A stretch of 64,000 bases of DNA from Pirellulales bacterium (lineage in GTDB: Bacteria > Planctomycetota > Planctomycetia > Pirellulales > Lacipirellulaceae), in the NCBI GenBank assembly GCA_040901765.1, contig JBBDYG010000071.1, forward strand, positions 44,645-108,644, in the 5' to 3' direction. Made by a program: the position numbers and the translations under genes. This document shows positions 5,020-41,776 of the stretch, piece after piece (within the stretch, counting starts at the first letter, position 1; the number at the start of each line of letters is the position of its first letter). The notes beneath the pieces were generated by a model. That model ran no database searches, was not told the DNA's origin, and worked only from the letters and a program-made list of their open reading frames with translations.

Positions 5020-5217
5020 GCCACGGATGGAACACCGATGGACACGGATGAAAACAAAGAATAAAGAACACTAATCAGATTCAATCGGCACTAATCCAGA
5101 AGAAAGCAGTCCGTCGGGTTCCTGATTAGCGAAGATTAGCGCCGATTAGTGTTCCTTAACTCTTCCTTGTTAATGCATCCGTGTTCAATCCGTGTTTCAT
5201 CCGTGGCTAGCATCTTC
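5020..5217. mobile_element. MITE-like palindromic element (CGCTAAT/CACGGATG family), copy 1
   Basis: About 200 bp imperfect palindrome. cacggatg-type repeats x3 at each outer end (10-11 bp phasing). ctaatc / gattagcg x3 at the inner ends (10 bp phasing). Lower GC than surroundings. Intergenic between the radical SAM gene and dapL. No ORF of its own. Confidence 0.5.
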
Positions 5218-5338
5218 TCCCCCGTATATCTGTGGCTCTGCGGCTTTTTTCATCGAGGGGAGTTGTGTTTGGGTCGGTATTAAGAGTACGTCGCACGCCC
5301 CGTTGTTGTCGCCCCTTCTCCGCGTTAATCTACGAGGC

Positions 5339-6571
5339 ATGAACGACCCCTACTTCCAATCGCTGTTCGCCGACCGCATCGGCGGGGCCAATTACGGCAA
5401 AGGCACCGCCATCTACAAGTTCGAGAAGATCAAGCGCGCCAAGCGCAAGGCGCTGGCGGAGCACCCGGAGCGGAAGCTGCTTGACTTTGGCATCGGTGAG
5501 AACGACGCGATGGCCCCCGAGAGCGTTCGCCGCGTGATGGCAGGCGAGATCGACAAGCCCGAGAACCGGGGCTACGCCGACAACGGCATCGCCGCGTTCA
5601 AAGAAGCCGCCGCCCGGTTCATGCACCGCGAGTTCGGCGTCGCACTCGACCCCGTGACAGAAATCAACCATTGCATCGGCTCGAAGCCCGCGCTCGCCAT
5701 GCTGCCGGCCTGCTTCGTAAACCCCGGCGACATCACGCTGATGACCGTGCCGGGCTACCCCGTGGCCGGCACCCACACCGGCTACTACGGCGGCATTGTT
5801 TACAAGCTGCCGCTGCTGGCCGAAAACAACTTCTTTCCCGACCTGAAGAGCATCCCGCTCGATATTCGCGCGCGGGCCAAGATGCTCGTGCTGAACTACC
5901 CCAATAGCCCCACCGGCAAGACGGCCACTCGCGAGTTTTACGAACAGGTCATCGAGTTCGCGCTGGCGAACCATTTGATCGTCGTGCAAGATGCCGCCCA
6001 CGCGATGCTCTCCTTCGACCGCGAGCCGAACAGTTTTCTTTCGGTGCCCGGCGCGAAGGACGTCGGTGTCGAAGTCCACTCGCTGTCGAAAGGCTTCGAC
6101 ATGATCGGCTGGCGAATGGGCTGGGTCTGCGGCCACGAACGGATCGTCCGCGCGTTTGCCGACGTGAAGGACAACAGCGACTCCGGCCAGTTCATCGCCA
6201 TTCAGAAAGCCGCCGCCGCCGCGCTCGATGACCCCGAAATTCCCAAGCGAACCCGCGCCAAGTATCGCCGCCGACTCGAAAAACTCGTAGCTACACTTAA
6301 GCGCTGCGGCTTCAATTGCGAAATGCCCGGCGGCACGTACTTCCTTTATACGCCGGCGCCGAAGGGCCTTGCGGATGGCTCCAAGTTCGAGAACGCCGAA
6401 GCGGCAAGCCAATACCTCATCACCGAGCAATCGATCTGCACCGTCCCCTGGGACGACGCCGGGGCGTATCTCCGCTTCAGCGCCACCTACGAAGCCGCCG
6501 ATAAGGCGGCGGAAGACCAGTTGATGCACGAGACGGAGGAGCGGCTGAAGGGAATTGGGCCGGTGTTCTGA
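5339..6571 (+). CDS. dapL: LL-diaminopimelate aminotransferase (class I/II aminotransferase)
   Basis: Remembered DapL-like blocks: KLLDFGIGEND, NNFFPDL, YPNSPTGKTATREF, SLSKGFDMIGWRMGW. 411 aa from the internal ATG (MNDPYFQSLF), matching DapL length. The track's upstream extension is hydrophobic off-frame sequence. Confidence 0.75.
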   Translation: MNDPYFQSLFADRIGGANYGKGTAIYKFEKIKRAKRKALAEHPERKLLDFGIGENDAMAPESVRRVMAGEIDKPENRGYADNGIAAFKEAAARFMHREFGVALDPVTEINHCIGSKPALAMLPACFVNPGDITLMTVPGYPVAGTHTGYYGGIVYKLPLLAENNFFPDLKSIPLDIRARAKMLVLNYPNSPTGKTATREFYEQVIEFALANHLIVVQDAAHAMLSFDREPNSFLSVPGAKDVGVEVHSLSKGFDMIGWRMGWVCGHERIVRAFADVKDNSDSGQFIAIQKAAAAALDDPEIPKRTRAKYRRRLEKLVATLKRCGFNCEMPGGTYFLYTPAPKGLADGSKFENAEAASQYLITEQSICTVPWDDAGAYLRFSATYEAADKAAEDQLMHETEERLKGIGPVF

Positions 6572-6588
6572 CGGCGCAGTTAATCGCC

Positions 6589-6801
6589 TCATTGTTTCCA
6601 AAGCGTTCCCCACATTTGGCGCGTATTGGTGTTGCCCTCTGCGTTTGACCCACATTGAAGGGCCGCTTGTTTTGCTTCAACCTCCTTGAAAACGTGGTAG
6701 GAACCTTTGGTCGTCTTGAAGACGATGTACGACTCACCTTCTTTGCCGTCGAACATTCGAATGTCGAGTCCTAGCCCCTTACGTTTTCCTTTCGTCGCCA
6801 T
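6589..6801 (-). CDS. small hypothetical protein (70 aa) in low-GC islet
   Basis: MATKGKRKGLGLDIRMFDGKEGESYIVFK... with a GGAGA RBS 9 nt upstream of the internal ATG. Local GC is about 48% versus ~62% for the genome. Confidence 0.45.
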   Translation of the reverse strand: MATKGKRKGLGLDIRMFDGKEGESYIVFKTTKGSYHVFKEVEAKQAALQCGSNAEGNTNTRQMWGTLWKQ

Positions 6802-6858
6802 CGCAGAATTCTCCAAATGTGCTAGACTCCAAGGCGTAGCTAGCATTAGGATACCAGT

Positions 6859-7131
6859 ATGAGTTATGAATTCCAAGCAATCTACGAACACGGCATCTTA
6901 CGCCCCCTGGCGCCGCTTGCTCTGCCCGAGGCTGCGAAGGTCATTGTGGCTGTGCGCGCCATCTGCGGCCCAGTCGGAGGAGGCTCGATATTGACTCCCG
7001 ATGAGTTATCGCGGCAGCAAGAGGCTCTCAACGCCATGTTCGCCAGGGTGGATCGCTTGCCACAGACCCCTCGCAATGATGGCCTCTCGAACCGGGACCA
7101 CGACCAAATTCTGTACGGTTCACCAAAATGA
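6859..7131 (+). CDS. DUF104-type antitoxin (VapB-like partner of PIN toxin)
   Basis: MSYEFQAIYEHGILRPLAPLALPEAAKV matches the DUF104 N-terminal pattern. ATGA overlap with the downstream PIN gene. Confidence 0.65.
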   Translation: MSYEFQAIYEHGILRPLAPLALPEAAKVIVAVRAICGPVGGGSILTPDELSRQQEALNAMFARVDRLPQTPRNDGLSNRDHDQILYGSPK

Positions 7132-7523
7132 TCTTCGTCGATACGGGAGCATGGTACGCGCGATACGTCGCCGAGGACGATGATCATGAAGCAGCGGTGA
7201 ATTGGTTTGCAGCCGTTCCGGACCGCTTGATTACCACCGACTATGTGATCGACGAACTGCTGACGCTTCTGAAAGTCCGCGGTTATCCAGACGTCGCATT
7301 CGACGTCGGAGGCCCGCTTATCTCTGGAATAGCCTGCCAGCTTGAATACGTGCAGCCCGACGACATCCAGCGATCCTGGTCAGTGTTCTCGACTTTCCGC
7401 GACAAGGAATGGAGTTTTACTGACTGTACAAGCTACGCAGTTATTGAGCGGTTGGCAATCAAGGTCGCATGCGCTTTCGACCAGCATTTCCGTCAATTTG
7501 GGAAGATTGTTGTTGTACCGTAG
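7128..7523 (+). CDS. vapC: PIN-domain toxin (VapC family)
   Basis: MIFVDTGAWYA...D..HE.A N-terminal PIN signature and a C-terminal FTDCTSYAVIERLAIKVACAFDQHF block. 4-nt overlap with the upstream antitoxin. Confidence 0.75.
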   Translation: MIFVDTGAWYARYVAEDDDHEAAVNWFAAVPDRLITTDYVIDELLTLLKVRGYPDVAFDVGGPLISGIACQLEYVQPDDIQRSWSVFSTFRDKEWSFTDCTSYAVIERLAIKVACAFDQHFRQFGKIVVVP

Positions 7524-7561
7524 AGCGCGAACCAGCTAGCCGCTGCGCATGTCTCTACCCC

Positions 7562-7960
7562 ATGCGATGCCCTGCACAAAAGTCTGCCCGCAAACGATCC
7601 GAGAACACCGATTCCGCGCTGGCCAAGCCCTTGGCGCCGGAAGACGTGCGCTGCGGAGATTTCGTGGCGGTGCTCCACGTCATCTGTGAGGTGCCATCAT
7701 ACTTCTGGTCCGCCGAGTCGTTCCGCTTGCCACACGATGAGCTGGTGAGGCTCCAGCACATCCCCGATGACGCGGGCGTTCCGCTCAAGGTTAAGTCCGT
7801 TTGCTTGCCTTTCGTTTTCGCGACAGATTCCGCAGGCGAGCGAAAGACGCTCGACCTACGCAAATGCCGGCTCGCTCGGCTCGATCGGGCGTACGCCAAG
7901 GCCGCATGGAAGGCGTGCCGAAAGGCCCATCGCAAACGGCAAAGCGCAAAAGCAAAATGA
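7562..7960 (+). CDS. hypothetical protein with Lys/Arg-rich C-terminus
   Basis: Open frame from the internal ATG after the VapC stop. No recognisable motif. Kept at low confidence. Confidence 0.25.
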   Translation: MRCPAQKSARKRSENTDSALAKPLAPEDVRCGDFVAVLHVICEVPSYFWSAESFRLPHDELVRLQHIPDDAGVPLKVKSVCLPFVFATDSAGERKTLDLRKCRLARLDRAYAKAAWKACRKAHRKRQSAKAK

Positions 7961-8110
7961 GACTTCATGCCTGAACCGACACGGCTTTCAATCCTTGCTC
8001 AAAAACGATATAGAATTTCGTTGTGCCAACTTCGTGCGCGCAGAGCGTGGCACAGTGGCACAAACTGAGAACACCGGGCAGCCGTCCAGGCGGGGTGGCT
8101 CGAAACACCG

Positions 8111-9223
8111 TTATGCCAGAGTAAACTCCGGCAGCCGCACGATCTCGCCCCCCTTTAGCGCCGATTCGTGCGCGCAAATGCCGGTGCAGGTCCAGTTGGC
8201 GCTCTGCACGGCGTTCGGCCAGGGGTCGCGGTCGGCGGCAAGCGCTTGCAGGAACTCGTTCACCAGATGCGGATGCGAGCCGCCGTGACCACCGCCCTGT
8301 ACGAACGACAGGTGAGAGGAATCGTGGATCGCCCGCGTGAACTGCTGGATTTCCTTCGGTAATAAATGTGCATAGTCGGGCACCTCCACATGCGCGGCGA
8401 TTTCCGGTTCGGGCTTCTTCGCCGTGTGAATTACGTGCTCCTCGTTCTCGACAAGCGTCCATTCAAAACTCTTCTTCGTGCCGTACACGTCAAAACTTTC
8501 GCGGTACTGCCGGGCTACGTCGTACAGGCAGCGCCAAATGTGGGCAGCGATGTCGGAGTCCTTGATCTTGATGTGACAGCTTTCGACGGCAAACTTGTTG
8601 CCCGACTTCCTAGCGATGTCGTCGCGCACCGTGCCAGAGCCAAAGCAGCTCACGTACTCGGCCCGGCCGTTCACGATGCCCAGCACGGGGCTGACGACGT
8701 GCGTGGCGTAGTGCATGGGGATCATCTTTTCCCAATAGGCGGGCCAGCCGTCCATGTCTTGCGGGTGCGAGGCGGCCAAGTGCTGAATCTGGCCCAGCTC
8801 ACCCTTGTCGTACAGTTCCTTGAGGAACAAAAACTCGCGGCTATAAACCACCGTCTCGGCCATCATGTACTTGAGGCCGGTCCGCGCGACCGTTTCGCAA
8901 ATCTGACGGCACTCGTCGATGGTCGTGGCCATCGGCACGGTACACATCACGTGCTTCCCCGCCTCCAGCGCCCGCAGGCTCATCCAGGCATGGTCGGGAA
9001 TCGGGCTGTTGATGTGGACGAAATCGACGTTCGGATCGGCCAACACGTCGTCATAGTTTGTGAACCGCTGTTCGATCCCAAAGTGGTCGCCGATCTTATT
9101 CAGTTCGGCCGCATCCCGACGGCAGATTCCATAGATGTTTCCAAGCGGGTGCTTCTGGTAAATGGGGATGAACTCCGCGCCAAAACCGAGACCGATCATT
9201 GCGACGTTGAACTGCTTGGCCAT
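8111..9223 (-). CDS. Gfo/Idh/MocA family NAD(P)-dependent oxidoreductase
   Basis: MAKQFNVAMIGLGFGAEFIP Rossmann N-terminus with an EAGKHVMCTVP block. GGAG RBS before the internal ATG at 9223. Confidence 0.8.
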   Translation of the reverse strand: MAKQFNVAMIGLGFGAEFIPIYQKHPLGNIYGICRRDAAELNKIGDHFGIEQRFTNYDDVLADPNVDFVHINSPIPDHAWMSLRALEAGKHVMCTVPMATTIDECRQICETVARTGLKYMMAETVVYSREFLFLKELYDKGELGQIQHLAASHPQDMDGWPAYWEKMIPMHYATHVVSPVLGIVNGRAEYVSCFGSGTVRDDIARKSGNKFAVESCHIKIKDSDIAAHIWRCLYDVARQYRESFDVYGTKKSFEWTLVENEEHVIHTAKKPEPEIAAHVEVPDYAHLLPKEIQQFTRAIHDSSHLSFVQGGGHGGSHPHLVNEFLQALAADRDPWPNAVQSANWTCTGICAHESALKGGEIVRLPEFTLA

Positions 9224-9364
9224 GCCCGTGTGTCTCCGTTGGAAACTGTTTAGTTTTTGATTCTTCCGCTTGTTATACACAAGTCGCCGCAGGATGGGAG
9301 CCGTATTGTAGCTGAACTCGCAAGAGTTCAGGGCGTCTGCAATCGTTGAATTCTTGCGAATTAG

Positions 9365-10519
9365 CTACAGCAATTCCGGCCACATGGCGTCGCTCACGAG
9401 CAGCCCGTCGCGGGTCAGGCAAACCCGATGGCCGTCGTCCTGGAGCAAGCCCATCTGCACATAGCGCCTCAGCTCGCGGCCTGCGAGTTGGTCGATCTCG
9501 AAACCCGTAGCGCTCTGAAACGCGGCTCGATGGACGCCTTCTAGCCGCCGCAGGCCGAAAATCAGCCGCTCGCGAGCACGCTGTTCCGGATTGAGCCGCT
9601 CGCGCTCGGCAACCGGCGACTCGCCGGCCAGAACATGCTTAAGATATGTCGTCGTGCTGCGGTGATTCGTCTCCCGCATGCCATCGACGTACCGCGCCGC
9701 GCCGGGGCCGGCGGCATAGTAGCCGCCGCCGCTCCAATAATTCTCATTGTGGCGGCTGCGCTTGCCGGGCCGAGCAAAGTTGGAGACTTCGTAGTGCTCG
9801 AAGCCAGCACTCGAAAGCTCGTCGATTGTCCACTCGTACATCTCCCGCTGCAACTCTTCGTCGCTTTCCACCAGGTCGCGTTTCTCGCGGCGATTCCAAA
9901 ACGTGGTGCCACGCTCAAACGTAAGGCCATAAGCGGAAATATGTTCAGGAGCAAGCTCGATCGCTTCGCCCAAGTCCCGCTGCCAGTCGGCGAGCGTTTC
10001 ACCTGGGGTCGCGAAGATCATGTCGAGCGACACGTCGAGACCCGCGCCACGGGCTAACCGCACCGATTCGGCAATTGCCTCCGGCGCGTGGTCGCGTTCG
10101 AGCAGCTTCAGCTTTTCGACTCGAAAGGATTGCCCGCCAATGCTCAGGCGAGTGACGCCAAATTGAACGAGCGCCTCGACCAAGCCTGCGGAAAGATCGG
10201 CGGGATTCGCTTCAACCGTCCACTCGTTTCCCGCGGCCAGTGGGTGCCAATTGCGAACGGTCCGGACTAACCGGGAAAAGTCATCGATTGCGAGCCGCGT
10301 CGGCGTGCCGCCGCCGAAGTAGAGCGTATCGACCTCGCGCGGCGTTTCGAGCCACGACAGTTCTCGCTCGATCGCATCGAGATACGCGGGCACCAGATCA
10401 TCGCGTCCCGCGACGACAGTGAAGTTGCAATACCCGCAGTGGTGCCGGCAAAACGGGACGTGAATATACACCGCTCGGGGCGGGGCATCGACCGCGGCGA
10501 TGGTGGCCGCCGCGGTCAT
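9365..10519 (-). CDS. hemW: radical SAM heme chaperone HemW (HemN-like coproporphyrinogen III oxidase family)
   Basis: VYIHVPFCRHHCGYCNF and LYFGGGTPT motifs. 4-nt overlap with the upstream cytochrome c gene. Confidence 0.8.
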   Translation of the reverse strand: MTAAATIAAVDAPPRAVYIHVPFCRHHCGYCNFTVVAGRDDLVPAYLDAIERELSWLETPREVDTLYFGGGTPTRLAIDDFSRLVRTVRNWHPLAAGNEWTVEANPADLSAGLVEALVQFGVTRLSIGGQSFRVEKLKLLERDHAPEAIAESVRLARGAGLDVSLDMIFATPGETLADWQRDLGEAIELAPEHISAYGLTFERGTTFWNRREKRDLVESDEELQREMYEWTIDELSSAGFEHYEVSNFARPGKRSRHNENYWSGGGYYAAGPGAARYVDGMRETNHRSTTTYLKHVLAGESPVAERERLNPEQRARERLIFGLRRLEGVHRAAFQSATGFEIDQLAGRELRRYVQMGLLQDDGHRVCLTRDGLLVSDAMWPELL

Positions 10520-11685: not shown

Positions 11686-11894
11686 CGAATTTCGCAACAG
11701 GTGCCGGTTGGGTTCATTATGAACCACCTTGCGTTTCTTGGCCATGAGTAGCATTTTGAACAGAAGGTCGCCAAGTTCGCGAAGGAGTTGGAAAAAGTCT
11801 GGGCTGAAACAGACTTTCTGACCTTCCTCATTCTTTGCGGACTTTGCGGCCTTCTGTTCAAGCGTTCGGCAGTTTTGTTCCGGCGGCAATTCTC

Positions 11895-18130: not shown

Positions 18131-18251
18131 AATGTGAGATGTGAGAAGGCAGAAGTAAAAAAGGACTCTCGTTAGCTGCGACGCCCGCCACGGCGGGCAG
18201 GCTTCGTCCTCGGAGCGGAGCGCGTAGGGCACCGGCTGTTGGATAAAATGC

Positions 18252-18514
18252 ATGCAGTACCTCCGCCTTTTGTGGGACGATGCAGACGACCTTCGAGGCA
18301 ATCTGCAGCACGTCCTGGATCATGGGCTGAGTATCGAGGACGTAGGCGACGCAATGCACAACCCGCCGCCCGTGGGACCAGTAAATCAAGTGGCCTGCCG
18401 TGCTTGTGGGGATATACTAGAGATGGCACGTACCTCTTTGTAGTCTACGAGGAAGTCGAGAAGACGCGGCTCGTGTCGTTACAGCCTATGAAGTCCCTGA
18501 ACCGAAATAGCTGA
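18252..18514 (+). pseudogene. BrnT-like (DUF497) toxin gene with apparent frameshift
   Basis: Frame 0 gives the N-terminal LWDDADDLRGNLQHVLDHGLSIEDVGDAMHNP (BrnT pattern F-WD-...KHG-S-EEA). The +2 frame from about 18400 gives the C-terminal LWGYTRDGTYLFVVYEEVEKTRLVSLQPMKS (BrnT pattern RW..G....LVVVYT.R...IRIISARKA). The switch occurs around 18366-18400. Confidence 0.45.
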
Positions 18515-18524
18515 CGCCAGACAA

Positions 18525-18860
18525 ATGGAAACCAGACAAATGGAAACCAGAATCGAACACGTGTTTACTCATCGAGGGCGGACGTCCGAAGAAGCGGCCC
18601 GCGACGATGCCATTCGTCGAGCCGTGAAGGAGGAGTTTCCTCCCGCGCGCTCTGCGGACCTGCACGGCCCAGGCACGTTCAGCGACACGCTGCGAGATTC
18701 GCTCAGGAGCAGCGAACGTCCCTTGGATCAGATCGCGGCCTCTGCGGGCGTTTCACCCACGCTTCTGGCGCGCTTTCTGGGTGGCGAGTGTGACATCCAC
18801 ATCACCACTGCGGACAGATTGGCGAAGGCTTTGGATCTAGTCGTCGCGGCAGTTGAATAA
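18525..18860 (+). CDS. HTH (XRE-like) antitoxin candidate paired with BrnT-like toxin
   Basis: The helix-turn-helix segment LDQIAASAGVSPTLLARFLGGE lies immediately downstream of the toxin remnant. Confidence 0.5.
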   Translation: METRQMETRIEHVFTHRGRTSEEAARDDAIRRAVKEEFPPARSADLHGPGTFSDTLRDSLRSSERPLDQIAASAGVSPTLLARFLGGECDIHITTADRLAKALDLVVAAVE

Positions 18861-18897
18861 GGTGGCGGGTTGCGGACTGTCATAGAAAAGTGGCGCA

Positions 18898-19371
18898 ATG
18901 ACCCAAAACTATCACGTCCGGCTCGCTAAGGAACAGTTTACCTTCAGCGCCGCGCATTTCATCACGTTCGCCGGCAACATCTGCGAACGACTCCATGGGC
19001 ACAACTATCACGTCGCGGTCGAGGTCCACGGATTACTCGATGAAAACCAGTACGTGATCGATTTCATCGCCCTTCGCGATGCGGTGCTGGCCATTACGCG
19101 AGCATTGGATCACCACGTGCTGCTGCCCACAACGCACCCGACGATCAAGATCGAAGCCGACGATCGCGAGGTGACGGTCACTTTTGAAGAACGGCGATGG
19201 GTCTTCCCGCTCGACGACTGCGTGCTGCTGCCGGTGGCCAACACCACCGCGGAACTGGTAGCGCGATACATCGGCGAACGTCTCATCGCGGGAATGCAGC
19301 CGAAGCCCGAGAAGCTGATTGTCTCCGTCGATGAATGCGATGGTCAACAAGGCGTTTGCGCGATGTCGTAG
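18898..19371 (+). CDS. queD: 6-carboxy-5,6,7,8-tetrahydropterin synthase (PTPS/QueD family)
   Basis: CERLHGHNY (CxxxHGH) zinc-binding motif and FTFSAAHF block. Confidence 0.8.
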   Translation: MTQNYHVRLAKEQFTFSAAHFITFAGNICERLHGHNYHVAVEVHGLLDENQYVIDFIALRDAVLAITRALDHHVLLPTTHPTIKIEADDREVTVTFEERRWVFPLDDCVLLPVANTTAELVARYIGERLIAGMQPKPEKLIVSVDECDGQQGVCAMS

Positions 19372-20609: not shown

Positions 20610-23327
20610 ATGTCTCTCAGCCCGATGATGCAGCAGTATCACGACGCCAAACAGGCGGTCGGCGATGCGCTCTTGCTGTTTCGGATGGGCGACTTCTACG
20701 AACTATTTCACGAAGACGCCAAGACTGCGGCGCGAGTCTTGGGCCTGTCACTTACCAGTCGCGACAAGGGCGAGAACCCGATCCCGATGGCGGGGTTTCC
20801 CCATCACCAGCTCGATCAGTACCTGGCGAAGATCATCCGCTCTGGGCACCGCGCCGCGATCTGCGAACAGCTCGAAGACCCCAAGCAAGCCAAGGGCATC
20901 GTCAAGCGCGACGTGACTCGGATCGTAAGCTCAGGCACGCTCACGGACGATTCGCTGCTCGACCCGCGAGCGAGCAACTATCTGGCGGCCGTTTGCACGC
21001 GACCCAAGCACCCGGATCGCGTCGGCGTGGCGTGGGTCGAGCTTTCGACGGGAAGGTTCTCGGCGGCGCAGTTCTCGCGCGGCCAGCTCGCCGATGAACT
21101 CGCGCGGATTGCTCCCAGCGAATGTCTCGTGGCCGAAGGGCTGGGCGAACTGGTGCTGGCCGATTGCCCCGAGCGGATGGCAATCACCACCCGGCCCGCG
21201 TGGTCGTTCGGTCGGCAGGCGGCGCTTGACGTGTTGGGCCGGCAATTCGGTTCGCATGCGCTCGAAGGATTCGGCTTCACGGTTCACGCGGAAGACGATC
21301 CGCTCGACTTGGCCGCTGCGGGGGCGATTCTTGAATATCTTATCGAAACGCAAAAGTCATCGCTCGAGCACATCGAACGACTCCTGCCCTATGCACCGGA
21401 AGAAACGCTGCAGATCGACAGCGCCACGTGGCGCAGCCTGGAAATCACGCAAACCTTGCGAGATGGACGCCGCGAGACGGCGCTGCTGGGCGTAATCGAC
21501 CGCACGGTGACCGGCATGGGCGCGCGGCTGCTCGCCGATTGGCTCTGCCATCCGCTGACCGACGTGGCGGCGATCGACGCCCGGCTCGACGCAGTCGGCG
21601 AACTGGTGCAGCATACTCCGACAACAACGGCGATACGACAGGAACTCACGGGCATCTACGATTTAGAGCGGCTACTCGCACGCGTCACCACGGGCCGAGC
21701 CAGTCCGCGCGATCTGTCATTCGTAGGCAGGACGCTCGCCGTACTACCGAAGATCAAGGCCAAACTCACCGGCCGCGCAAGCCCGAAGCTGGTGGACCTT
21801 GAAGGGCGGATCGACCTGTGCGGCGAAGTCCGCGGCCGGCTGGAACAGGCACTCGTCGAAAACTGCCCGCTTAACACGCGCGATGGCGGGTTCATTCGCG
21901 CCGGCTTCCATCCGCCGCTCGATGAACTTCGTGAACTGATGGTGGGCGGCAAACAGTGGATGGCCCGCTATCAAGCGGCCGAATGCGAGCGAACCGGCAT
22001 CGGCTCGATGAAGGTCGGATTCAACTCGGTGTTCGGCTATTACCTGGAAGTCACGCATACTCATCGCGATAAGGTGCCGCCCGAATACATCCGCAAGCAA
22101 ACGCTCAAGAACGCCGAGCGATACGTCACGCCGGAACTCAAAGAGTACGAGGAGAAAGTTCTGTCGGCCGAGGAACGCGCAAAGCAACTCGAGTTGAGAT
22201 TATTCACCGAGTTGCGCGATCTAGTGGCATCCGCGTCGAAGCGGATATTGAGCACCGCGGCAGCACTGGCGGAACTGGATGTGCTCACAGGCCTCGCCGA
22301 CCTCGCTACGTCGCGCAACTACATTCGGCCCACAGTCGTCGCCGAGCCGGTTCTGGAAATCGAAGAAGGCCGCCACCCCGTGCTCGACGCACTCGAAGCG
22401 GCCGGAACATTCGTCCCGAACGACTGTCGCTGCGCGGGAGGGGCTAGGGATGGGGAGCTGGGGGCTGGGGAAGAAAAAGTGCCAAATTGCCAAACGTCGC
22501 TCCCCAGCCCCCAGCCCCCAGCCCCCAGCCCCTCGCTCCTCTTAATTACCGGTCCCAACATGGCCGGCAAGAGCACTTACATCCGCCAGACGGCGCTGCT
22601 CGTGCTGCTCGCGCAGATTGGCAGCTTCGTTCCCGCGCGGCGAGCAATCATTGGCGTCGCCGATCGGCTGTTTGCCCGCGTCGGCGCGAGCGACGAACTT
22701 TCCCGTGGCCAAAGCACGTTCATGGTCGAGATGACCGAAACGGCTCGAATTCTCAACACGGCAACCCACCGCAGCGTCGTGATCCTCGACGAAATCGGCC
22801 GCGGCACGAGCACCTACGATGGCCTGTCGCTGGCGTGGAGCATCGTCGAATACTTGCACGACCGCATCGGCTGCCGCGCGCTGTTTGCGACGCACTATCA
22901 CGAACTTACCGACTTGGCGGGCGAACTACCCGGAGTGGCCAACCTCAACGTCGCCGTGGAAGAACACGCGGGGAAGGTCGTGTTCCTGCATCGCATCGTG
23001 CCGGGCGCTGCCGATAAGAGCTACGGCATCCACGTCGCGGAACTAGCCGGCGTGCCGCGGGAGGTGAACCGCCGCGCTGCGGAGATTCTCGCACAGCTTG
23101 AAGCGCAGCACCACGGACGGCAAGACCATGTCGCACGTGGTGCGACGGCTTCAGCCGCGACACCACGTGTCGCACGAAACGGTCACGCGCTGCAGCTTAC
23201 GCTGTTTGAGCAAACCAACCACCCGCTGCTGGAGGAAATCCGCACGGTGGATGTGAACCAGTTGACGCCGATGGAGGCACTGATGCGGTTGCAGGCGTGG
23301 CAAGAAAAGCTAACGGAATCGCCGTGA
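20610..23327 (+). CDS. mutS: DNA mismatch repair protein MutS (carries two in-frame hairpin-forming insertions)
   Basis: N-terminal MSLSPMMQQYHDAKQ...FRMGDFYELF and Walker A GPNMAGKST are present. At 905 aa it is about 40-50 aa longer than typical MutS. The extra length is at 22452-22531 and 23130-23173. Confidence 0.9.
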   Translation: MSLSPMMQQYHDAKQAVGDALLLFRMGDFYELFHEDAKTAARVLGLSLTSRDKGENPIPMAGFPHHQLDQYLAKIIRSGHRAAICEQLEDPKQAKGIVKRDVTRIVSSGTLTDDSLLDPRASNYLAAVCTRPKHPDRVGVAWVELSTGRFSAAQFSRGQLADELARIAPSECLVAEGLGELVLADCPERMAITTRPAWSFGRQAALDVLGRQFGSHALEGFGFTVHAEDDPLDLAAAGAILEYLIETQKSSLEHIERLLPYAPEETLQIDSATWRSLEITQTLRDGRRETALLGVIDRTVTGMGARLLADWLCHPLTDVAAIDARLDAVGELVQHTPTTTAIRQELTGIYDLERLLARVTTGRASPRDLSFVGRTLAVLPKIKAKLTGRASPKLVDLEGRIDLCGEVRGRLEQALVENCPLNTRDGGFIRAGFHPPLDELRELMVGGKQWMARYQAAECERTGIGSMKVGFNSVFGYYLEVTHTHRDKVPPEYIRKQTLKNAERYVTPELKEYEEKVLSAEERAKQLELRLFTELRDLVASASKRILSTAAALAELDVLTGLADLATSRNYIRPTVVAEPVLEIEEGRHPVLDALEAAGTFVPNDCRCAGGARDGELGAGEEKVPNCQTSLPSPQPPAPSPSLLLITGPNMAGKSTYIRQTALLVLLAQIGSFVPARRAIIGVADRLFARVGASDELSRGQSTFMVEMTETARILNTATHRSVVILDEIGRGTSTYDGLSLAWSIVEYLHDRIGCRALFATHYHELTDLAGELPGVANLNVAVEEHAGKVVFLHRIVPGAADKSYGIHVAELAGVPREVNRRAAEILAQLEAQHHGRQDHVARGATASAATPRVARNGHALQLTLFEQTNHPLLEEIRTVDVNQLTPMEALMRLQAWQEKLTESP
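22452..22531. repeat. inverted repeat (19-bp arms) with AT-richer loop inside mutS, translated in frame
   Basis: ggggagctgggggctgggg ...aagaaaaagtgccaaattgccaaacgtcgc... ccccagcccccagccccc. Encodes GARDGELGAGEEKVPNCQTSLPSPQPPAPSPS immediately before LLITGPNMAGKST. Confidence 0.6.
23130..23173. repeat. REP-like hairpin pair inside mutS 3' region (in frame)
   Basis: GTCGCAC-gtg-GTGCGAC ggcttcagcc GCGACAC-cac-GTGTCGC. Encodes HVARGATASAATPRVAR in the linker before the C-terminal tail. Confidence 0.6.
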
Positions 23328-23358
23328 CTGTCGCGATGCACCCGATGCTATAATCAAT

Positions 23359-23613
23359 ATGGGCAAGTACGACAAACTCTTTCGCAAAATCACTAGCGGT
23401 CATTCCGATGCGAACATCGCATTTGACGAGTTGCGAAAGCTGTTATTACGTTTGAATTTTTACGAGCGGACCGAGGGAAGTCATCACATATTCACACGGG
23501 ATGACATCGAAGAGTTGATCAATCTTCAGCGTGATGGCGCAAAGGCTAAACCTTACCAGGTGCGGCAAGTTCGCGACGTCATCACTCAAAACAATCTCAG
23601 TTTGGAGCCGTAA
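23359..23613 (+). CDS. hicA: HicA-family toxin (YcfA-like mRNA interferase)
   Basis: RTEGSHHIFTRDD and N-terminal KLFRKITSGHSD...LRKLL pattern. 1-nt TAATG overlap with hicB. Confidence 0.65.
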   Translation: MGKYDKLFRKITSGHSDANIAFDELRKLLLRLNFYERTEGSHHIFTRDDIEELINLQRDGAKAKPYQVRQVRDVITQNNLSLEP

Positions 23614-23825
23614 TGCATAAGTACGAAATCATCATTTATTGGAGCGAGATTGACGACGCGTTCCTTGCGGAAGTACCGGAACTTCCCGGCTGCATGGCCC
23701 ATGGTAATTCGCAGAAGACCGCGCTGGAGTCCGTTCAACAGGCGATCGATCTTTGGTTGCAGACCGCGGGAGAGCTTGGGCGATCGATTCCCGAACCGAA
23801 GGGCCGGCGTTTGATGCTCGCGTAG
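23613..23825 (+). CDS. hicB: HicB-family antitoxin (UPF0150)
   Basis: YEIIIYWSEIDDAFLAEVPELPGCMAHGNSQKTALESVQQAIDLWL matches the HicB N-terminal domain pattern. Confidence 0.65.
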   Translation: MHKYEIIIYWSEIDDAFLAEVPELPGCMAHGNSQKTALESVQQAIDLWLQTAGELGRSIPEPKGRRLMLA

Positions 23826-23830
23826 ACCGC

Positions 23831-24418: not shown

Positions 24419-24540
24419 CGAACTAGACTCCACCTTTTCAATTGACCACGGATTGCGCGGATTGCACTGATAGTAGAAAGTCGCGACTAGCAAGTTTTCC
24501 TTATCCGTGCCATCAGTGTAATCCGTGGTTCGTTTCTGAT

Positions 24541-29984: not shown

Positions 29985-30090
29985 GGAAAAGCGGAAAGCC
30001 AAGCGATTTCGGAATGCGGATTTCGGATTGCGGATTGAATTGGGAGAATCCGCAATCCACAATCCGAAATCCGCAATTCTTTGACTCGGG
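29985..30090. repeat. palindromic 7-bp-period array (AATCCGC / GCGGATT units) upstream of AMP-ligase gene
   Basis: ggaatgcggatttcggattgcggattgaattgggagaatccgcaatccacaatccgaaatccgcaattc. About 5 units each side, in inverted orientation. Confidence 0.55.
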
Positions 30091-30951: not shown

Positions 30952-31174
30952 CTTTCGGATCGATCATCGCGGAAAGACCTAACCAATCAAAAACAGTCAA
31001 ACTCAAAGCAAGCAATCATTTGCACCACGGAGGCACGGCGGACACGGAGTAGAAATAGGGCGATCGAATAGAAATGGCGCGCTGCCCCGCTTCCTATCGT
31101 AAATATTCTCCGTGTCCTCGGTGCCTCCGTGGTGATTCACAGTTCCACGTCGCATAAACCAGGGGGATTCAGAA

Positions 31175-32827: not shown

Positions 32828-32833
32828 GTCCGT

Positions 32834-32877
32834 GTCGCACGTGGTGCGACGGCGTAAGCCGCGGCACCACGTGCCGC
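32834..32877. repeat. REP-like hairpin pair downstream of flotillin gene
   Basis: GTCGCAC-gtg-GTGCGAC ggcgtaagcc GCGGCAC-cac-GTGCCGC. Confidence 0.6.
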
Positions 32878-33041
32878 ATGGCAACTCCGCCACATTTTCT
32901 CCGTCTCTTCGCGCGCCCTTCATCAATTTCTCACATTGCTCGAATAAGCTTCCCTGTCGTTTCTCGTTCTTGTGCGGGTTTGGTTTGAACCTGACGCAAG
33001 CTTTCAGCAGGAAGCACAATGCAAAGTGAGGAGGGTGACAC

Positions 33042-34093: not shown

Positions 34094-34139
34094 TGCCGCA
34101 CGTGGTGCCGCGGATTAAACCGTCGCACCACTTGCGACA
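34094..34139. repeat. REP-like hairpin pair (degenerate) downstream of DUF1559 gene
   Basis: gccgcacgtggtgccgcgg is the reverse orientation of the 32861 copy. cgtcgcaccacttgcgac is the 348 copy with G to T. Confidence 0.5.
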
Positions 34140-34214
34140 TGGCTAGTTGCACCAAGACTCCTATGCTAAAGTTTCGCCTGGCTCGATCAACACCGTTGGT
34201 CCGCGAGGCGAAGC

Positions 34215-35381: not shown

Positions 35382-35509
35382 GTCAGGCTGTGCCTGACGA
35401 ACACCGGAGCCGATGCCAGTTGAAGGGCCGGCAGGCTGAAAAACTTGAGCTACGCTACAATGAAGATCCCCGTCGCAGGCGTTTCCTTCTTGTAGCCGAG
35501 GCCGTATCG

Positions 35510-37102: not shown

Positions 37103-37564
37103 GCTTTTCGCGTTATGGCGATGCGGTTTTCCGCGGTTGTGCCACTTTGCCACGCTGCGCGCACATGTAGCTGGCAAACAGAAGCCTCCTCTCGCATTTG
37201 CGCAGTGCGAAGGCACGCATTCCTCATCAGGGGGCGGAAAACTTATGATCGCGCTGCTCGTCGGGTGAGTTTCCGCGGATGACGTGGATCAGCATTGCCA
37301 CGTGTCGGCGCAAAACCTGTGTTTTTGTAGAGGATTGCCACAATGCCACTTCCAGCGGGGGAGGCCAAGCTGGTGGCAACGCTGACCAGGGAGGATCGCG
37401 GCAGGCCGCAAGCGGCAGAATTATCCGGGGGACTCTATCCCCTAGGCAGCGACTTTTGGAGCCTTTGAGAACGATTCTCAAAAACCCCCCTGGAGCCCGC
37501 TTGACGCGGATAAGAGCATCATGCACAATCTCCGTGAGTTGATACTGAGTCTCGATAACAACAC

Positions 37565-38584
37565 ATGGAGTTACCCATGCAGCCCCTTGCCTCCGCCAAA
37601 CGTGCATTTACTCTGGTCGAACTCTTGGTCGTCATCGCCATCATTGGAATCTTGATTGCCCTGCTACTGCCAGCAGTTCAAGCCGCCCGCGAGGCAGCCC
37701 GCCGCTCCTCGTGCCAGAACCAGGTCAAGCAGATCGCGCTGGGCTTCCACAATTTCGAATCGTCGCATCGCGAGCTTCCGCCGGCGATGATTTACCACGG
37801 CACTGCGGCGACGCTGGCAAAATGGTCGCCCATGGCCCGCGTGCTTCCCTATTTGGAGGAGGCCAATTTCGAGAAGGAGATCGACTACACCAGCCAATAC
37901 GAACTGGTGCATTACGGCAACGGGCTAATCGGCGCCTACCGCGTCGCGACGTACCTGTGCCCCTCGGAAGAACGCGACGAAGTGCGACTAGCGGCCGATG
38001 GCACGCCCGAGCATTATCCGATCAACTACGGCGTCAACCGCGGCGTGTGGCGGACGTTCGACCCCACCAAGCAGCTTCCGGACGAAGGGGCATTTCAAGT
38101 GAACGTCGGCACGAAGTTTCGCAACTTCACCGATGGCATGACGAGCACGCTGATGCTCGCCGAGGTGAAGGGCTGGACGCCCTATTTCCGCGATCAGGCA
38201 ATCACCCAAGCCACACCGCCCACAACGGTGGCTGAAGTTTGTGGTTTAGGTGGTTCTTTCAAAAAAGACTCCGGTCACACCGAGTGGGTCGATGGCCGTG
38301 TCCACCAAACGGGCTTTACTGCCCTGTTTCCGCCGAACTCGCGCGTCGAATGCGTGCAGGGCGGCGTGCCGTACGATGCCGATTGGACCAGCTCCCGCGA
38401 AGGGGTCAGCCCGACCGAGAAGACGTTCTCGGCGGTGACCGCCCGCAGCTACCATTCGGGCAACGTGGTGAATGCCGCCATGATGGACGCCTCCGTCCAG
38501 ACCGTGAACGGCGACATCGACCCCCTGGTTTGGCGAGCACTCGCCACCCGCGCCAGCGGCGAAGTTGCTGAGCTGACCAACTAG
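37565..38584 (+). CDS. DUF1559 protein with prepilin-type N-terminal motif
   Basis: [39 protein letters not shown] and C-terminal [15 protein letters not shown] variant of H-X9-DG. Confidence 0.8.
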
Positions 38585-38743
38585 CAATTTTGCCGAGCCG
38601 CAGAGCTTCTGGATTCCCCGCCCGGCGGCCAGAGGCTGCCGTTACTGGCAAAATCAGAACCTCTCTTGGCCGACGGGGTTAAACGCGTGGCGGAACGCGC
38701 TTTGCATAGCGCTCCGCCCCCGTCACCCCCAGGGAGGCGTTCC

Positions 38744-39409
38744 GTGCATAAGTTTGTTTCGGCTAATGATCGGCGCTGGTTCCTGCGCAAGATCGCGTTT
38801 GGCGCGGCGGCGTTTTCTACCACGGGCCTGCTGGCCGAAGAGCTTCAGCGGACTCCCGCCCAGACCGAGGGGCCGTTCTACCCGAACAACTTGCCGCTCG
38901 ATACGGACAACGATCTGTTGATCGTCAACGACGGCCTGACTCCTGCCGTCGGGGACGTCACCCACCTCACCGGCCGCATCCTAAGTGCCGCTGGCGAGCC
39001 GGTTCGCAATGCCGTTGTAGAAATCTGGCAGTGCGACAGCAATGGCGTCTACCTGCACACGCAAGGTGGACCGCGCGACCGGCTCGACGCAAACTTTCAA
39101 GGCTTCGGCCGGTTCCTCACCGGTTCGGACGGCAACTACTATTTCCGCACGATCAAGCCCGTGCCCTATGGACCGCGCACGCCGCACATCCATTTCGCCG
39201 TATATCAGGGCGGCAAGCGCGCGCTCACGACCCAGTGCTACATCCGCGGCGAGAAACAAAACGAACGCGACGGCGTGCTGCGAAGCATGCGCGACCCCCA
39301 AGCGGCCGATCTGTTGATGGTCGATTTCAATCCGCTACCCGAATCAAACATCGGCGAGTTGACGGCCAACTTTGAAATCGTCCTGGGGACGACTCCCGAG
39401 CAGAGTTAG
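38744..39409 (+). CDS. Tat-secreted intradiol ring-cleavage dioxygenase family protein
   Basis: Twin-arginine signal NDRRWFLRKIAFGAAAF. TEGPFYP and ...NAVVEIWQCDSNGVYLH...PHIHFAVY blocks. GTG start with an AGGGAGG RBS. Confidence 0.7.
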   Translation: MHKFVSANDRRWFLRKIAFGAAAFSTTGLLAEELQRTPAQTEGPFYPNNLPLDTDNDLLIVNDGLTPAVGDVTHLTGRILSAAGEPVRNAVVEIWQCDSNGVYLHTQGGPRDRLDANFQGFGRFLTGSDGNYYFRTIKPVPYGPRTPHIHFAVYQGGKRALTTQCYIRGEKQNERDGVLRSMRDPQAADLLMVDFNPLPESNIGELTANFEIVLGTTPEQS

Positions 39410-39623
39410 AAACCGCTAATGGACGCTAAAGTGAAGCGGCGTTAATTCACCACGGTGACACGGAGAACGCAGAGGAAGGCATGATGCAAATCTGGTCTCT
39501 GGCACCTCCTACTATTTGGTCAATTCATTTCATTCTCCGTGTTCCCCGTGCCGCCGTGGTGATATTTGATTGTTTTTCTGTGTGAATGGTGGATTAGCGC
39601 GAATTAGCGTCCATTAGCGGTTT
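39410..39623. mobile_element. MITE-like palindromic element (CGCTAAT/CACGG family), copy 2, perfect 20-bp termini
   Basis: aaaccgctaatggacgctaa ... ttagcgtccattagcggttt. Inner caccacggtgacacggag / ctccgtgttccccgtgccgccgtggtg. TTAGCG hexamers at 11-bp phasing. Starts right after the dioxygenase stop. Confidence 0.55.
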
Positions 39624-39710
39624 ACAAATTTTCGTTGCGTAGTGAAGTCCTCGTAACCTTGTCGGCGCGAGATGTTTGGCTTTTCGATCCTTTAGACGGA
39701 GTAACTGACA

Positions 39711-40553
39711 ATGCGAAACTTGTTAACGAAACCACTGGCAGTGATGCTGGTGCTGATGTTGGCGGTGGCCGCCGGCGCGCAAGAGCGCGAGCGAGGAGAG
39801 CGCGGTGGCCGGGGCCGTGGTGGCGGCTTCGGCGGCCGTGGCATGTTCGAAGTGACACGACTCAGGCTCGTCGGCGTCGAGCCGGTGCAGGAAGAGTTAG
39901 GACTCGTGGAAGAGCAACTCACCAAGATCAACGATCTGCGAGACGAACTCCGCGGAGATCGTGGTGAACGAGGCGAGCGCGGTGAGCGGCCCAACTTCCA
40001 AGACATGACCGAAGAAGAACGCCGTGAATTCATGGCCGAGCGCCAGCGCGAAGCGTCCGAGCGCAGCGCGCAAGAGAAGGAGAAACTGGGCGAGGTTCTC
40101 ATGCCCCACCAGAGCAAGCGGCTGGAGGAAATTTTCTTGCAGGTTCGTGGCGCCGGCGCACTGCTTGACCCCGAGGTAGCCAAGGAAGTTGGCTTGTCTG
40201 AAGAGGACCAGGACGAGCTGCGCGAAACGATTCAAGAAGCCCGACAAGAAATGATGGCCGAGATGCGCGAGCTGTCCGAGTCGGGCGACCGCGATCAAAT
40301 CCGCGAGAAGATGACCGAGATGCAGAAGCAGGTCGAAGAACAAGCACTCGCCGCGCTTTCCGAGGAGCAGAAGCAAAAGTTCACGGAACTGAAGGGCGAG
40401 AAGTTCGACATGCCCCCCGACGCGCTGCGGGGCGCTTTTGGTGGCGGCCGGGGTGGTGAGGGCCGCCGGGGTGGTGAGGGCCGCCGCGGTGGTGAGGGCC
40501 GCCGCGGTGGCCGCGAAGGCCGGCCCGAACGCCCGGACGGCGATTCGGTTTAA
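39711..40553 (+). CDS. secreted LTXXQ-motif (Spy/CpxP-like) protein with Gly/Arg/Glu-rich repeats
   Basis: Signal peptide. EEQLTKINDL, LSEEDQDEL and LSEEQKQKF motifs. C-terminal (GEGRRG)x3 encoded by an 18-bp tandem DNA repeat at 40447-40500. Confidence 0.5.
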   Translation: MRNLLTKPLAVMLVLMLAVAAGAQERERGERGGRGRGGGFGGRGMFEVTRLRLVGVEPVQEELGLVEEQLTKINDLRDELRGDRGERGERGERPNFQDMTEEERREFMAERQREASERSAQEKEKLGEVLMPHQSKRLEEIFLQVRGAGALLDPEVAKEVGLSEEDQDELRETIQEARQEMMAEMRELSESGDRDQIREKMTEMQKQVEEQALAALSEEQKQKFTELKGEKFDMPPDALRGAFGGGRGGEGRRGGEGRRGGEGRRGGREGRPERPDGDSV

Positions 40554-40584
40554 GCTGGTGGCCGTTTCCATTTCGTTCGCCGTT

Positions 40585-40614
40585 CAGGAGCCAGAACACT
40601 TGTTCTGGCTCCTG
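40585..40614 (+). terminator. near-perfect 13-bp-stem hairpin after LTXXQ gene
   Basis: caggagccagaaca ct tgttctggctcctg, 30 nt after the stop. No U tract. Confidence 0.35.
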
Positions 40615-40664
40615 TCGCGCGCCCACAATGGGAACTCAGTGAACCACTCATGAGAAAGAAGGTT

Positions 40665-40780
40665 AACCGCTAATTGACGCTAATGAGCGCTAATAAGAAA
40701 GCTGAGCCGTTCGTCATTGGCTTTCAGATAGAATCATTCCTTATTTTTTTATTAGCGTCGATCAGCGTTCATTTGCGGTT
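40665..40780. mobile_element. MITE-like palindromic element, copy 3 (short form)
   Basis: aaccgctaattgacgctaatgagcgctaataagaaa ... tttttttattagcgtcgatcagcgttcatttgcggtt. CGCTAAT at 11-bp phasing. AT-rich centre. Confidence 0.5.
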
Positions 40781-40840
40781 TCTCTTCTTTCACGATTCCT
40801 GTCGTTCGGACGATCAATATGACTCATTAGGGAGGCAATT

Positions 40841-41653
40841 ATGACAGCCATTCTTTCTCGCACGATGTTTTCGCTTTTAGTGGTCGCGGGCCTTTGCTCG
40901 GTGGGTGTCGCCGCCGATGCGGTGACGGATCGGTTGGAGGATTCGCCGCGGCATTATGAGTGGGTCGAGGTGAAAACGCCCGAGGGGCGGACCGTGAAGT
41001 GCTGGGTTGTGTTTCCCGAAGTCAGCGAGCCGGCTACTGCGGTGGTGGTGATCCACGAGAACCGCGGCCTGAACGACTGGGCGCGCAGCGTGACCGATCA
41101 AGTGGCCGAGGCGGGCTATGTGGCCATCGCGCCGGATCTGTTGAGCGGCACCGGACCGGACGGCGGCGGCACCGACTCCTTCGCCAGCGACGACGATGCC
41201 CGCACCGGCATCGGCCGGTTGCCGCCCGAGCAAGTCACCGGCGATCTGACAGCGGTGGTTGCGCATGCGAAGACAATCGAATCGGCCAATGGCAAAGTGG
41301 CGGTGGCCGGCTTCTGCTGGGGCGGCGGCCAAGCCTTCCGCCACGCTTGCAGTGGCGACGAAATCGCCGCGGCCTTCGTTTTCTACGGCAGCGCGCCCGA
41401 TGACGAGACGCTAAAGAAATCGAGCGCCCCCGTCTACGGTTTCTATGGCGGCAACGACTTCCGCATCACCAGCCAGGTGCCCCGCGTCAAGAAAACAATG
41501 GATCAACTGGGCCACGACTACGAACCAATAACCTACGCCGGCGCCGGCCACGGTTTCCTGCGCTCCGGCGAAATGGAAGACGCTAGTGAAGCCGATGTAA
41601 AGGGCCGCGAGGCGGCGTGGAAGCGGTGGAAGGAAATCCTGGCGAAGCTGTAG
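40841..41653 (+). CDS. dienelactone hydrolase family alpha/beta hydrolase (secreted)
   Basis: VVIHENRGLNDWARSVTDQVAEAGYVAIAPDL DLH signature. Signal peptide. GGGAGG RBS. Confidence 0.75.
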   Translation: MTAILSRTMFSLLVVAGLCSVGVAADAVTDRLEDSPRHYEWVEVKTPEGRTVKCWVVFPEVSEPATAVVVIHENRGLNDWARSVTDQVAEAGYVAIAPDLLSGTGPDGGGTDSFASDDDARTGIGRLPPEQVTGDLTAVVAHAKTIESANGKVAVAGFCWGGGQAFRHACSGDEIAAAFVFYGSAPDDETLKKSSAPVYGFYGGNDFRITSQVPRVKKTMDQLGHDYEPITYAGAGHGFLRSGEMEDASEADVKGREAAWKRWKEILAKL

Positions 41654-41671
41654 TTACGCAGAAAGTTGGAG

Positions 41672-41776
41672 CCTCGGATGACAGCCGGATTTATACACGG
41701 ATGTAGGGGAGTTATCCGAAGCCATTCAACTCGCTGTTTGTTTATTAGCGCCGGTTAGCGTTGATTAGCGGCTTCC
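41672..41776. mobile_element. MITE-like element, copy 4 (CGGATG repeats plus TTAGCG x3)
   Basis: cggatgacagccggatttatacacggatg ... ttagcgccggttagcgttgattagcgg. The right end supplies the TAA stop of the GH18 gene. Confidence 0.45.

Follow-up and report, generated by a model that had tools for sequence, protein, structure and literature searches.

The foot of repetitive extragenic palindromes (REPs) is a GTAG or CGTC tetranucleotide, which is read by RAYT (PMC3733652, PMC6006769), and class 3 TnpA-Y1 of Planctomycetes and Acidobacteria goes with 'atypical' REP-like sequences, CAGAGCCGCGACCGTCAGGGAGCG (PMC6006769). Here we analyzed a family of intergenic repeats in a 64,000-nt stretch of DNA (the window) from a Pirellulales metagenome-assembled genome (MAG), namely positions 44,645 to 108,644 of contig JBBDYG010000071.1 in assembly GCA_040901765.1; figures given for the genome beyond the window are extrapolations. 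These repeats carry arms of three phased heptamers, and both the GTAG/CGTC REPs (PMC3733652) and the class 3 TnpA-Y1 repeats (PMC6006769) were rejected as their identity, since the sequences differ. An earlier note on this DNA had reported four copies of a palindromic family resembling miniature inverted-repeat transposable elements (MITEs), and all four sites are present as it described them, subject to the corrections given below.

The building block of the family is a module of about 35 bp, consisting of a short foot and then exactly three CRCNNAN heptamers with a period of 9-11 bp, and the number of units per module was three in 184/187 and 83/85 cases. The foot is TTTAAC in Verrucomicrobia and TTTAGC or GGAAC in Planctomycetes, and a foot of the form T[TA]A[AG]C precedes TTAGCG-type and CACGGAT-type arrays alike. 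At least ten heptamer types were recognized, TTAGCG (CGCTAAT) and CACGGAT among them, and single arrays mix CGCTAAT, CACTAAT, CGCTGAT, CACTGAT, CGCGGAT and CACGGAT. The TTAGCG (CGCTAAT) and CACGGATG triplets are two flavors of one module, not separate motifs. The modules occur mostly in inverted pairs, and the pairs combine into mosaics.

Neither motif is enriched in the window when counted singly: 31 TTAGCG were observed versus 24.4 expected, and 62 CACGGATG (at most 1 mismatch) versus 71.7 expected. By comparison, TTAGCG-N4-TTAGCG with at most 2 mismatches was found 15 times versus 4.97 ± 2.15 in shuffled sequences, with 0/100 shuffles reaching 15, and phased arrays of at least 2 units numbered 7 for ATTAGCG and 5 for CACGGAT versus 0.42 and 0.92 in the shuffles. 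These results indicated that the enrichment signal sits only in the phasing and not in the motif counts. Since TTAGCG pairs with a 5-bp gap gave no matches in the window, the TTAGCG period is exactly 10 bp; the phasing described earlier as a 10-11 bp spacing of hexamers is real, with the figures refined to 10 bp for TTAGCG and 9-11 bp for CACGGAT. At the loci from the Planctomycetes-Verrucomicrobia-Chlamydiae (PVC) phyla, the arrays have variable spacers and end in ATTAGCG-GTT (after the last unit, G in 73%, T in 91% and T in 66%), many of them are paired in inverted orientation around a loop of 6-345 nt, and other module types adjoin them. A T-run lies 5′ of the hairpin and an A-run 3′ of it, on both strands.

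In the window, copy 1 (5017..5212; palindromic elements are given without a strand) is an intact composite and a palindrome (fold z = −9.8) with ends TTTAGCCACGGATG...CATCCGTGGCTAG; its outer arrays are of the CACGGAT type (5022-5050 and 5176-5209), and its inner arrays are of the CGCTAAT type (left, degenerate, 5066-5096; right, 5124-5157). Copy 2 (39410..39623; z = −7.2) is a composite directly 3′ of a dioxygenase stop codon, with outer TTAGCG arrays at 39410-39429 and 39593-39623; its inner arrays, at 39447-39484 and 39525-39562, consist of CACGG[TA]G / CGCAGAG units instead of the CACGGATG-like units that had been assigned to two copies. Copy 3 (40654..40791; z = −5.9) is a TTAGCG-only hairpin with arrays at 40662-40695 and 40750-40782, in which the right arm is decayed (ATCAGCG, ATTTGCG) and the palindrome reaches into the GAAAGAAGG/TCTCTTCTTTC linkers. 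Copy 4 (41672..41776, plus strand), which lacks self-complementarity (z = −0.38) and looks like a decayed composite, carries a degenerate forward CACGGAT array (41673-41703) and then a reverse TTAGCG array (41743-41773). The inverted arms reported for the family were therefore seen in copies 1 to 3 and not in copy 4, and the same holds for terminal inverted repeats as expected of a MITE, which are also present in the element at 24445-24529 described below. The terminal 20-mer AACCGCTAAT[GT]GACGCTAA, said to be shared by all, is confined to copies 2 and 3, where it starts at 39411(+), 39604(−) and 40665(+), and is missing from copies 1 and 4. The remaining descriptions were borne out: the four copies are all intergenic, they are AT-rich (GC 0.40-0.50 versus 0.60 for the whole window and 0.56 for intergenic DNA), and copy 4 supplies the stop codon of a GH18 gene (41765-41767, minus strand), which falls inside its last TTAGCG.

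A count of four is nevertheless too low, as an inverted-repeat scan and a tandem-repeat scan of the window traced further elements. A fifth copy, a CACGGAT-type hairpin (24445..24529; z = −4.8) between the aspS stop and the AhpC gene, has the units CACGGAT, CGCGGAT and CACTGAT in one arm and ATCCGTG, ATCAGTG and ATCCGTG in the other. Two hairpins represent sister families: one (31023..31134; z = −6.7) lies upstream of a Band_7 gene, each of its arms having three CACGGAG/CACGGCG units, and the other (11756..11861), in a divergent spacer, has CGCCAAG/CGCGAAG units and a reverse arm that reads CTTTGCGG.

We searched for exact TTAGCG triplets with a 10-bp period in 596 Gb of sequence, one genome per species, and found at least 120 loci, versus a chance expectation of about 17, estimated under uniform base composition. 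The condition under which the earlier note would have been refuted, four unique loci with no conservation beyond them, is thus clearly contradicted, and the repeats are a dispersed family. Among the 120 loci that were fetched, with the taxon taken from the sequence records, 69 were from Verrucomicrobiota, 27 from Planctomycetota, 2 from Victivallales and 22 from other taxa; 98/120 thus belong to PVC phyla, and the remaining 22 include several plain tandem repeats. A module scan of about 2 Mb of fetched loci yielded 361 modules, versus about 1 per 0.41 Mb in the shuffled control. The 110 elements that were placed relative to genes lay in tandem (66), divergent (23) and convergent (21) spacers, whose total intergenic lengths were 69.7, 29.9 and 24.2 kb, and 0/110 lay inside a gene. 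Elements therefore occupy the intergenic types in proportion to length, with no tie to gene orientation.

Scanning IMG/VR for the TTAGCG triplet gave 50 contigs, mostly with unrelated simple tandem repeats that have identical spacers; a few arrays look like true modules, and inverted ends around genes were seen in 0/50 of these contigs. Rfam gave no family at gathering scores over the whole window, and permissive searches of the copies gave two chance-level hits; annotated plasmids and phages held no match to the modules. This agrees with the earlier statement that the repeats fall in no annotated class, and we found no paper describing the modules and none linking MITEs to PVC bacteria. A fixed module of three heptamers, with many specificities and conserved across phyla, appears to be unusual and undescribed. 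Three of the fetched loci show how modules can be stacked. In a contig binned outside PVC (L003, a Nitrosomonas MAG), CGCGAAT x3 ... ATTAGCG x3 composites at 59-432 are arranged in tandem at a 174-bp period; in L036 (3773-4040), seven different left-hand modules are stacked, each opening with TTTAAC; and in L056 (6433-6700) the right-hand modules are out of mirrored order, so that this set is not a simple nested hairpin.

To compare occupied and empty sites, relatives were reached via MutS (94% to 85% identity), DLH (dienelactone hydrolase; 91% to 72%) and DapL (94% to 86%), and the contigs were compared. L202 is about 90% identical to the window in DNA; L208 (91%) and L210 (72%) were reached via DLH. 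The same DLH-based comparison of orthologous sites in JGI metagenomes gave best relatives of at most 60% identity and no synteny. In the window, copy 1 lies between radical SAM and dapL genes, copy 2 between dioxygenase and LTXXQ genes, copy 3 between LTXXQ and DLH genes, and copy 4 between convergent DLH and GH18 genes. The LTXXQ-DLH spacer is free of elements in L210 and occupied in the window by copy 3, which is TTAGCG-only and has two decayed units, whereas L208 has a full composite there in the order CACGGAT x3 - CACTAAT/CGCTAAT x3 - loop - ATTAGCG x3 - ATCCGTG x3. This L208 composite aligns over its full length with window copy 1, which is at a non-orthologous locus, the two having in common the ends TTTAGCCACGGATG...GTGGCTAA, the sequences GAACACTAAT...ATTAGTGTTCC and the linkers (linker similarity p ~0.026), and a verrucomicrobial MAG locus (L039) repeats the order of copy 1, CACCGAT middle unit included. 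These alignments show that a whole composite has been dispersed to unrelated loci.

Other sites gave a similar picture. L209 carries, 3′ of DLH, a more complete form of the copy 4 remnant, and the aspS-AhpC spacer of L202 holds only remnants of the CACGGAT arms plus a nested CGCGGAG/CGCAGAG hairpin. The radical SAM-dapL spacer measures 54 bp in L264 and 435 bp in the window, where the extra 380 bp around copy 1 is bounded by an exact 8-bp direct repeat, GTATTAAG (4897..4904 and 5277..5284, both plus strand), and L264 has one GTATTGAG. This indel may reflect an insertion that duplicated 8 bp or, alternatively, a deletion by slippage; synteny was lost in the outgroups of this region. The copies thus differ between relatives in presence and in content, and the aligned spacers show turnover by decay, overwriting or deletion after insertion.

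We then asked whether the heptamers are recognized as sites or merely serve as stems. When window copy 1 was compared with the L208 composite, unit positions were identical in 77/84 cases (92%) and other positions in 54/101 (53%; Fisher p = 5e-9). Heptamers of paired arms match by definition, whereas spacer complementarity between the arms was 0.41, 0.35 and 0.53 for the outer spacer and 0.18, 0.29 and 0.06 for the inner one. Across 92 informative inverted pairs, mirrored units showed 1.025 differences and non-mirrored units 1.031, with 910/2000 permutations at least as good; since mirrored units differ as much as non-mirrored ones, pairing is not upheld by compensation, a result that decay of initially perfect palindromes predicts as well. 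RNA folds ranged from −42 to −94 kcal/mol, and the favored strand varied by site and was unrelated to the gene strand. Because the spacers are unpaired, compensation is lacking, units are conserved, the strand is indifferent, placement is neutral to orientation and the T-run is inverted, we favor the heptamers as recognized sites, as the earlier note had proposed, and these patterns argue against a role at the transcript level.

Taken together, we tentatively prefer to read the modules as a large superfamily of non-autonomous, probably trans-mobilized mosaic repeats of PVC bacteria, whose arms are arrays of three putative protein-binding heptamers. A protein whose gene lies elsewhere in the genome would bind the three heptamers cooperatively on one face of the helix, and two inverted modules would mark the ends of a unit that is copied or moved whole into intergenic DNA, a step for which the recurring composite gives partial evidence. 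Insertion beside or inside earlier copies would then produce nested, mixed composites such as copy 1, with CACGGAT outside and CGCTAAT inside, and copy 2, with the reverse arrangement. An inserted copy is not maintained at its locus, where it decays, is overwritten or is deleted, as seen between the relatives, and copies 3 and 4 are such remnants. Copying would continue only in lineages whose sites are intact, which would preserve the heptamers and leave spacers, linkers and loops to drift, and the mover could be a DDE enzyme or an HUH/single-stranded DNA (ssDNA) enzyme. Protein binding, the act of transposition and the reason for heptamer integrity are what we infer from the patterns above.

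Several observations weigh against mobilization. Neither an autonomous element nor a gene flanked by modules turned up in the ~2 Mb of fetched loci, the window likewise contained no parent element with a transposase gene, and inspection of the loci revealed no consistent target-site duplication at module borders. The only clean indel, of 380 bp with its 8-bp repeat, is longer than copy 1, lacks inverted ends itself and is explained just as well by slippage that deleted the segment in L264. Copies within one genome share units and not spacers, and therefore many rounds of lineage selection would be required. The copy number is extrapolated from 64 kb of the source genome. Finally, identical heptamers and architecture in two phyla are unusual for a selfish element and equally fit a conserved host protein.

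Such a host DNA-binding protein is the main rival, although we consider it unlikely. The arrays would be bound by a conserved PVC protein family, a nucleoid-associated protein or global regulator with paralogues for each heptamer, the inverted pairs would reflect a symmetric oligomer, and the role would be chromosome organization or global regulation. Heptamers far better conserved than spacers, a unit number of exactly three in helical phase, and identical motifs and architecture in different phyla all suit architectural or regulatory sites, as do modules that are at times unpaired or non-nested (L056, copy 4) and the absence of compensation between arms. What such sites fail to explain is that individual ones are not conserved in relatives about 90% identical in DNA, that they go with neither a gene orientation nor certain genes, and that several heptamer types are interchangeable at one locus; moreover, whole composites with their linkers recur at unrelated loci, which binding-site turnover alone does not predict. 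Iteron or operator arrays, which the earlier note had held to be equally possible, are not supported, given the length-proportional spread over intergenic types and the loss or replacement of sites in close relatives.

Explanations that need no binding protein fared worse for the modules. Slipped-strand expansion of short units and template switching could build and homogenize palindromes in place as by-products of local mutation, with no movement and no trans factor, which we judge very unlikely here. A class of tandem-heptamer hairpins in the window (see below) does behave in this way, with arrays varying from 3 to 6 copies and the mutS and radical-SAM sites carrying different heptamers in close relatives; in the CRCNNAN arrays, however, the unit number is fixed at three and the spacers differ within an array, so they are not recent slippage products, and their heptamers, foot and order of composites are shared between phyla and between loci that are unrelated. 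Still less likely is that the repeats act only as RNA or structure, as terminators, 3′ mRNA stabilizers or processing sites in which the repeated units are incidental. The predicted folding is strong (z of −4.8 to −9.8 as ssDNA, −42 to −94 kcal/mol as RNA) and many window copies lie just 3′ of a stop codon, but 3′ ends are not enriched overall, divergent spacers being used as often as expected, and a T-run before and an A-run after the hairpin is the reverse of an intrinsic terminator. Besides, the strand favored by G-U pairing is independent of the gene strand, compensatory changes are absent, spacer complementarity is at or below chance, folding is lacking in copy 4 as in other single arrays, and Rfam gave no match. 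Membership among intrinsic terminators or structured RNAs fails on the T-run order, the missing 3′-end enrichment, the missing compensatory changes and the lack of an Rfam hit. A CsrA sponge, suggested by the resemblance of CACGGAUG to the CsrA consensus, was also dropped, as CGCUAAU-type units contain no GGA and the arrays lie on both strands. Resemblances to the KorB operator and to DnaA boxes were noted as well.

A broader proposal, which we regard as rather doubtful, is that the modules are the DNA side of an ancient PVC-wide recognition system, in which a protein family reads three phased CRCNNAN heptamers behind TTTAAC with at least 10 specificities per genome. The protein would be a transposase or recombinase of a new class, acting on elements that consist of ends only, or else one that structures the chromosome through hundreds of sites in each genome, and if such a system exists, the variable heptamer positions 4, 5 and 7 would form a simple specificity code. 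A dedicated protein reading phased heptamers would constitute a new system of DNA recognition or mobility with a simple, possibly reprogrammable code. The modules may form a visible share of the intergenic DNA in two large, little-studied phyla, Akkermansia-related genomes included; their density in the window is roughly one element per 5 kb, extrapolated beyond it. They are unannotated, they can provide a gene with its stop codon, and hairpins of the related heptamer class can be read in frame within essential genes (mutS). The modules vary between strains, and therefore gene calling, assembly and strain typing are affected.

The related hairpins form a second class, built from tandem heptamers. 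Two of them are intergenic, one (29997..30086; z = −5.2) in a divergent spacer with arms of GCGGATT/TCGGATT and AATCCGC, and one (48286..48370; z = −6.1) a tandem ATTGCAA hairpin between HlyD-family and ABC ATPase genes. Two lie in frame inside genes: a GCTGGGG/CCCCAGC hairpin (22438..22541, plus strand) just upstream of the Walker A motif of mutS (20610-23327), and CAATCCG arrays (4383..4441, plus strand) in the radical-SAM gene, where the orthologous site of L264 reads AAATCCC. In all Pirellulales MutS examined, the residues immediately ahead of the Walker A motif are hypervariable, and the unit of the mutS hairpin is GCTGGGG in the window and GCGAGGA in L202 and L204, while the right arm is replaced by four CAATCCG in L207. 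An array of five AATCCCA (3954-3989) abuts the ATG of the radical-SAM gene. To judge from these variants, tandem-heptamer arrays probably evolve by slippage and replacement, and the class seems related in architecture to the three-unit modules, with a common mechanism not proven. The tandem heptamers CCCCAGC and AATCCCA resemble the short tandemly repeated repetitive (STRR) units of heterocystous cyanobacteria, and the in-frame palindromic repeats in mutS and the radical-SAM gene resemble the Rickettsia palindromic elements (RPE) found in Rickettsia genes. Unlike STRR and RPE, the window arrays are from another phylum and are arranged as hairpins, and the unit at one site changes between close relatives.

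Other repeats and gene-content differences were noted along the window. Palindromes of the GTCGCAC/GTGCGAC type lie 3′ of genes at 32830-32881 of the window and at 340-420 of L202, at differing loci, and may be another repeat family. A GC-rich hairpin, caggagccagaacacttgttctggctcctg (40586-40613), 3′ of the LTXXQ gene is kept in L208 and L210, unlike the neighboring repeats, and is probably the real terminator, and an 18-bp tandem repeat, GGCCGCCGCGGTGGTGAG (x3.8, 96% matches), occupies 40443-40510 within the LTXXQ-family open reading frame (ORF). A HicA/HicB toxin-antitoxin pair (Pfam hits; 23317-23829) between mutS and the AhpC gene is missing from L202, where the genes abut. Also absent from L202 is a segment of about 700 bp (18184-18898) that encodes two small ORFs (HTH_31 is a weak hit for one of them) and inside which a perfect 15-nt tandem repeat, CCAGACAAATGGAAA (x2.3), lies at 18517-18551. 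An AF2212-like gene and a PIN-domain gene form a VapBC-type toxin-antitoxin pair (6859-7523) 3′ of dapL, where relatives have DUF2442/DUF4160 or HTH_31, and the GH18 gene, a PEP-CTERM protein gene and an ORF of unknown kind between DLH and DUF2007 (41765-45255) are missing in L208, in which DUF2007 follows DLH directly. The window also encodes DUF1559 proteins bearing an N-terminal methylation motif, its MutS and DapL match MAG proteins at NCBI with 100% identity, and SRR27977660 contains an identical contig.

Among the described systems, the ends of Mu, Tn7 and Tn402 share with the repeats several phased putative binding sites at two inverted ends, and the three sites per end recall L1-L3 and R1-R3 of Mu, whose R1-R2 end contains CRCGAAA-like heptamers. 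Unlike these transposons, the modules have no 5′-TG...CA-3′ termini and no 5-bp duplication, opening instead with TTTAGCC.../TTTAACC..., their sites are 7 bp long at a 10-bp period versus about 22 bp, and no transposase, ATPase or target-selector genes lie between module ends at the loci examined. Because termini, site length and duplication do not fit, the modules are not Mu/Tn7 ends, and the derivation from such a transposon suggested by the earlier note is not supported. The verrucomicrobial ends TTTTAAC...GTTAAAA resemble the RYYYAAC...GTTRRRY core sites of integron attC; an attC identity was rejected, as attC sites belong to cassette arrays of one orientation next to an integrase, whereas these elements are found among housekeeping genes and in every orientation.

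The repeats come closer to MITEs: they are 70-220 bp long, do not code for protein, and combine inverted ends with an interior that varies; they are scattered over intergenic DNA, can be nested, and vary in presence between relatives. They differ in showing no consistent target duplication at their borders (the one 8-bp repeat bounds a 380-bp indel larger than copy 1), in that no parent insertion sequence was found in the ~2 Mb of fetched loci or the window, and in having ends made of three 7-bp sites rather than a single terminal inverted repeat, so that copies share sites and not the intervening sequence. A TA or TTAA target duplication was considered and rejected, since the planctomycete ends TTAG...CTAA are inverted and not direct. 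With the REPs and bacterial interspersed mosaic elements (BIMEs) of enterobacteria and with REPINs (REP doublets forming hairpins), which are mobilized by RAYT, a Y1 HUH transposase, differences lie in the foot, which is TTTAAC or TTTAGC and not GTAG/CGTC, in the arms, made of three phased heptamers with unpaired spacers where a REP arm is one continuous stem, and in the sharing of motifs across phyla, REPs being species-specific; a linked RAYT was not seen, and no HUH gene was noticed within the 64-kb window. What the modules have in common with REPs, BIMEs and REPINs is that all are short, imperfect extragenic palindromes in high copy, with motif types mixed in order and orientation as mosaics, free of target-site duplication and of coding capacity. 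In their behavior the elements are like selfish DNA of the REP/BIME or MITE type.

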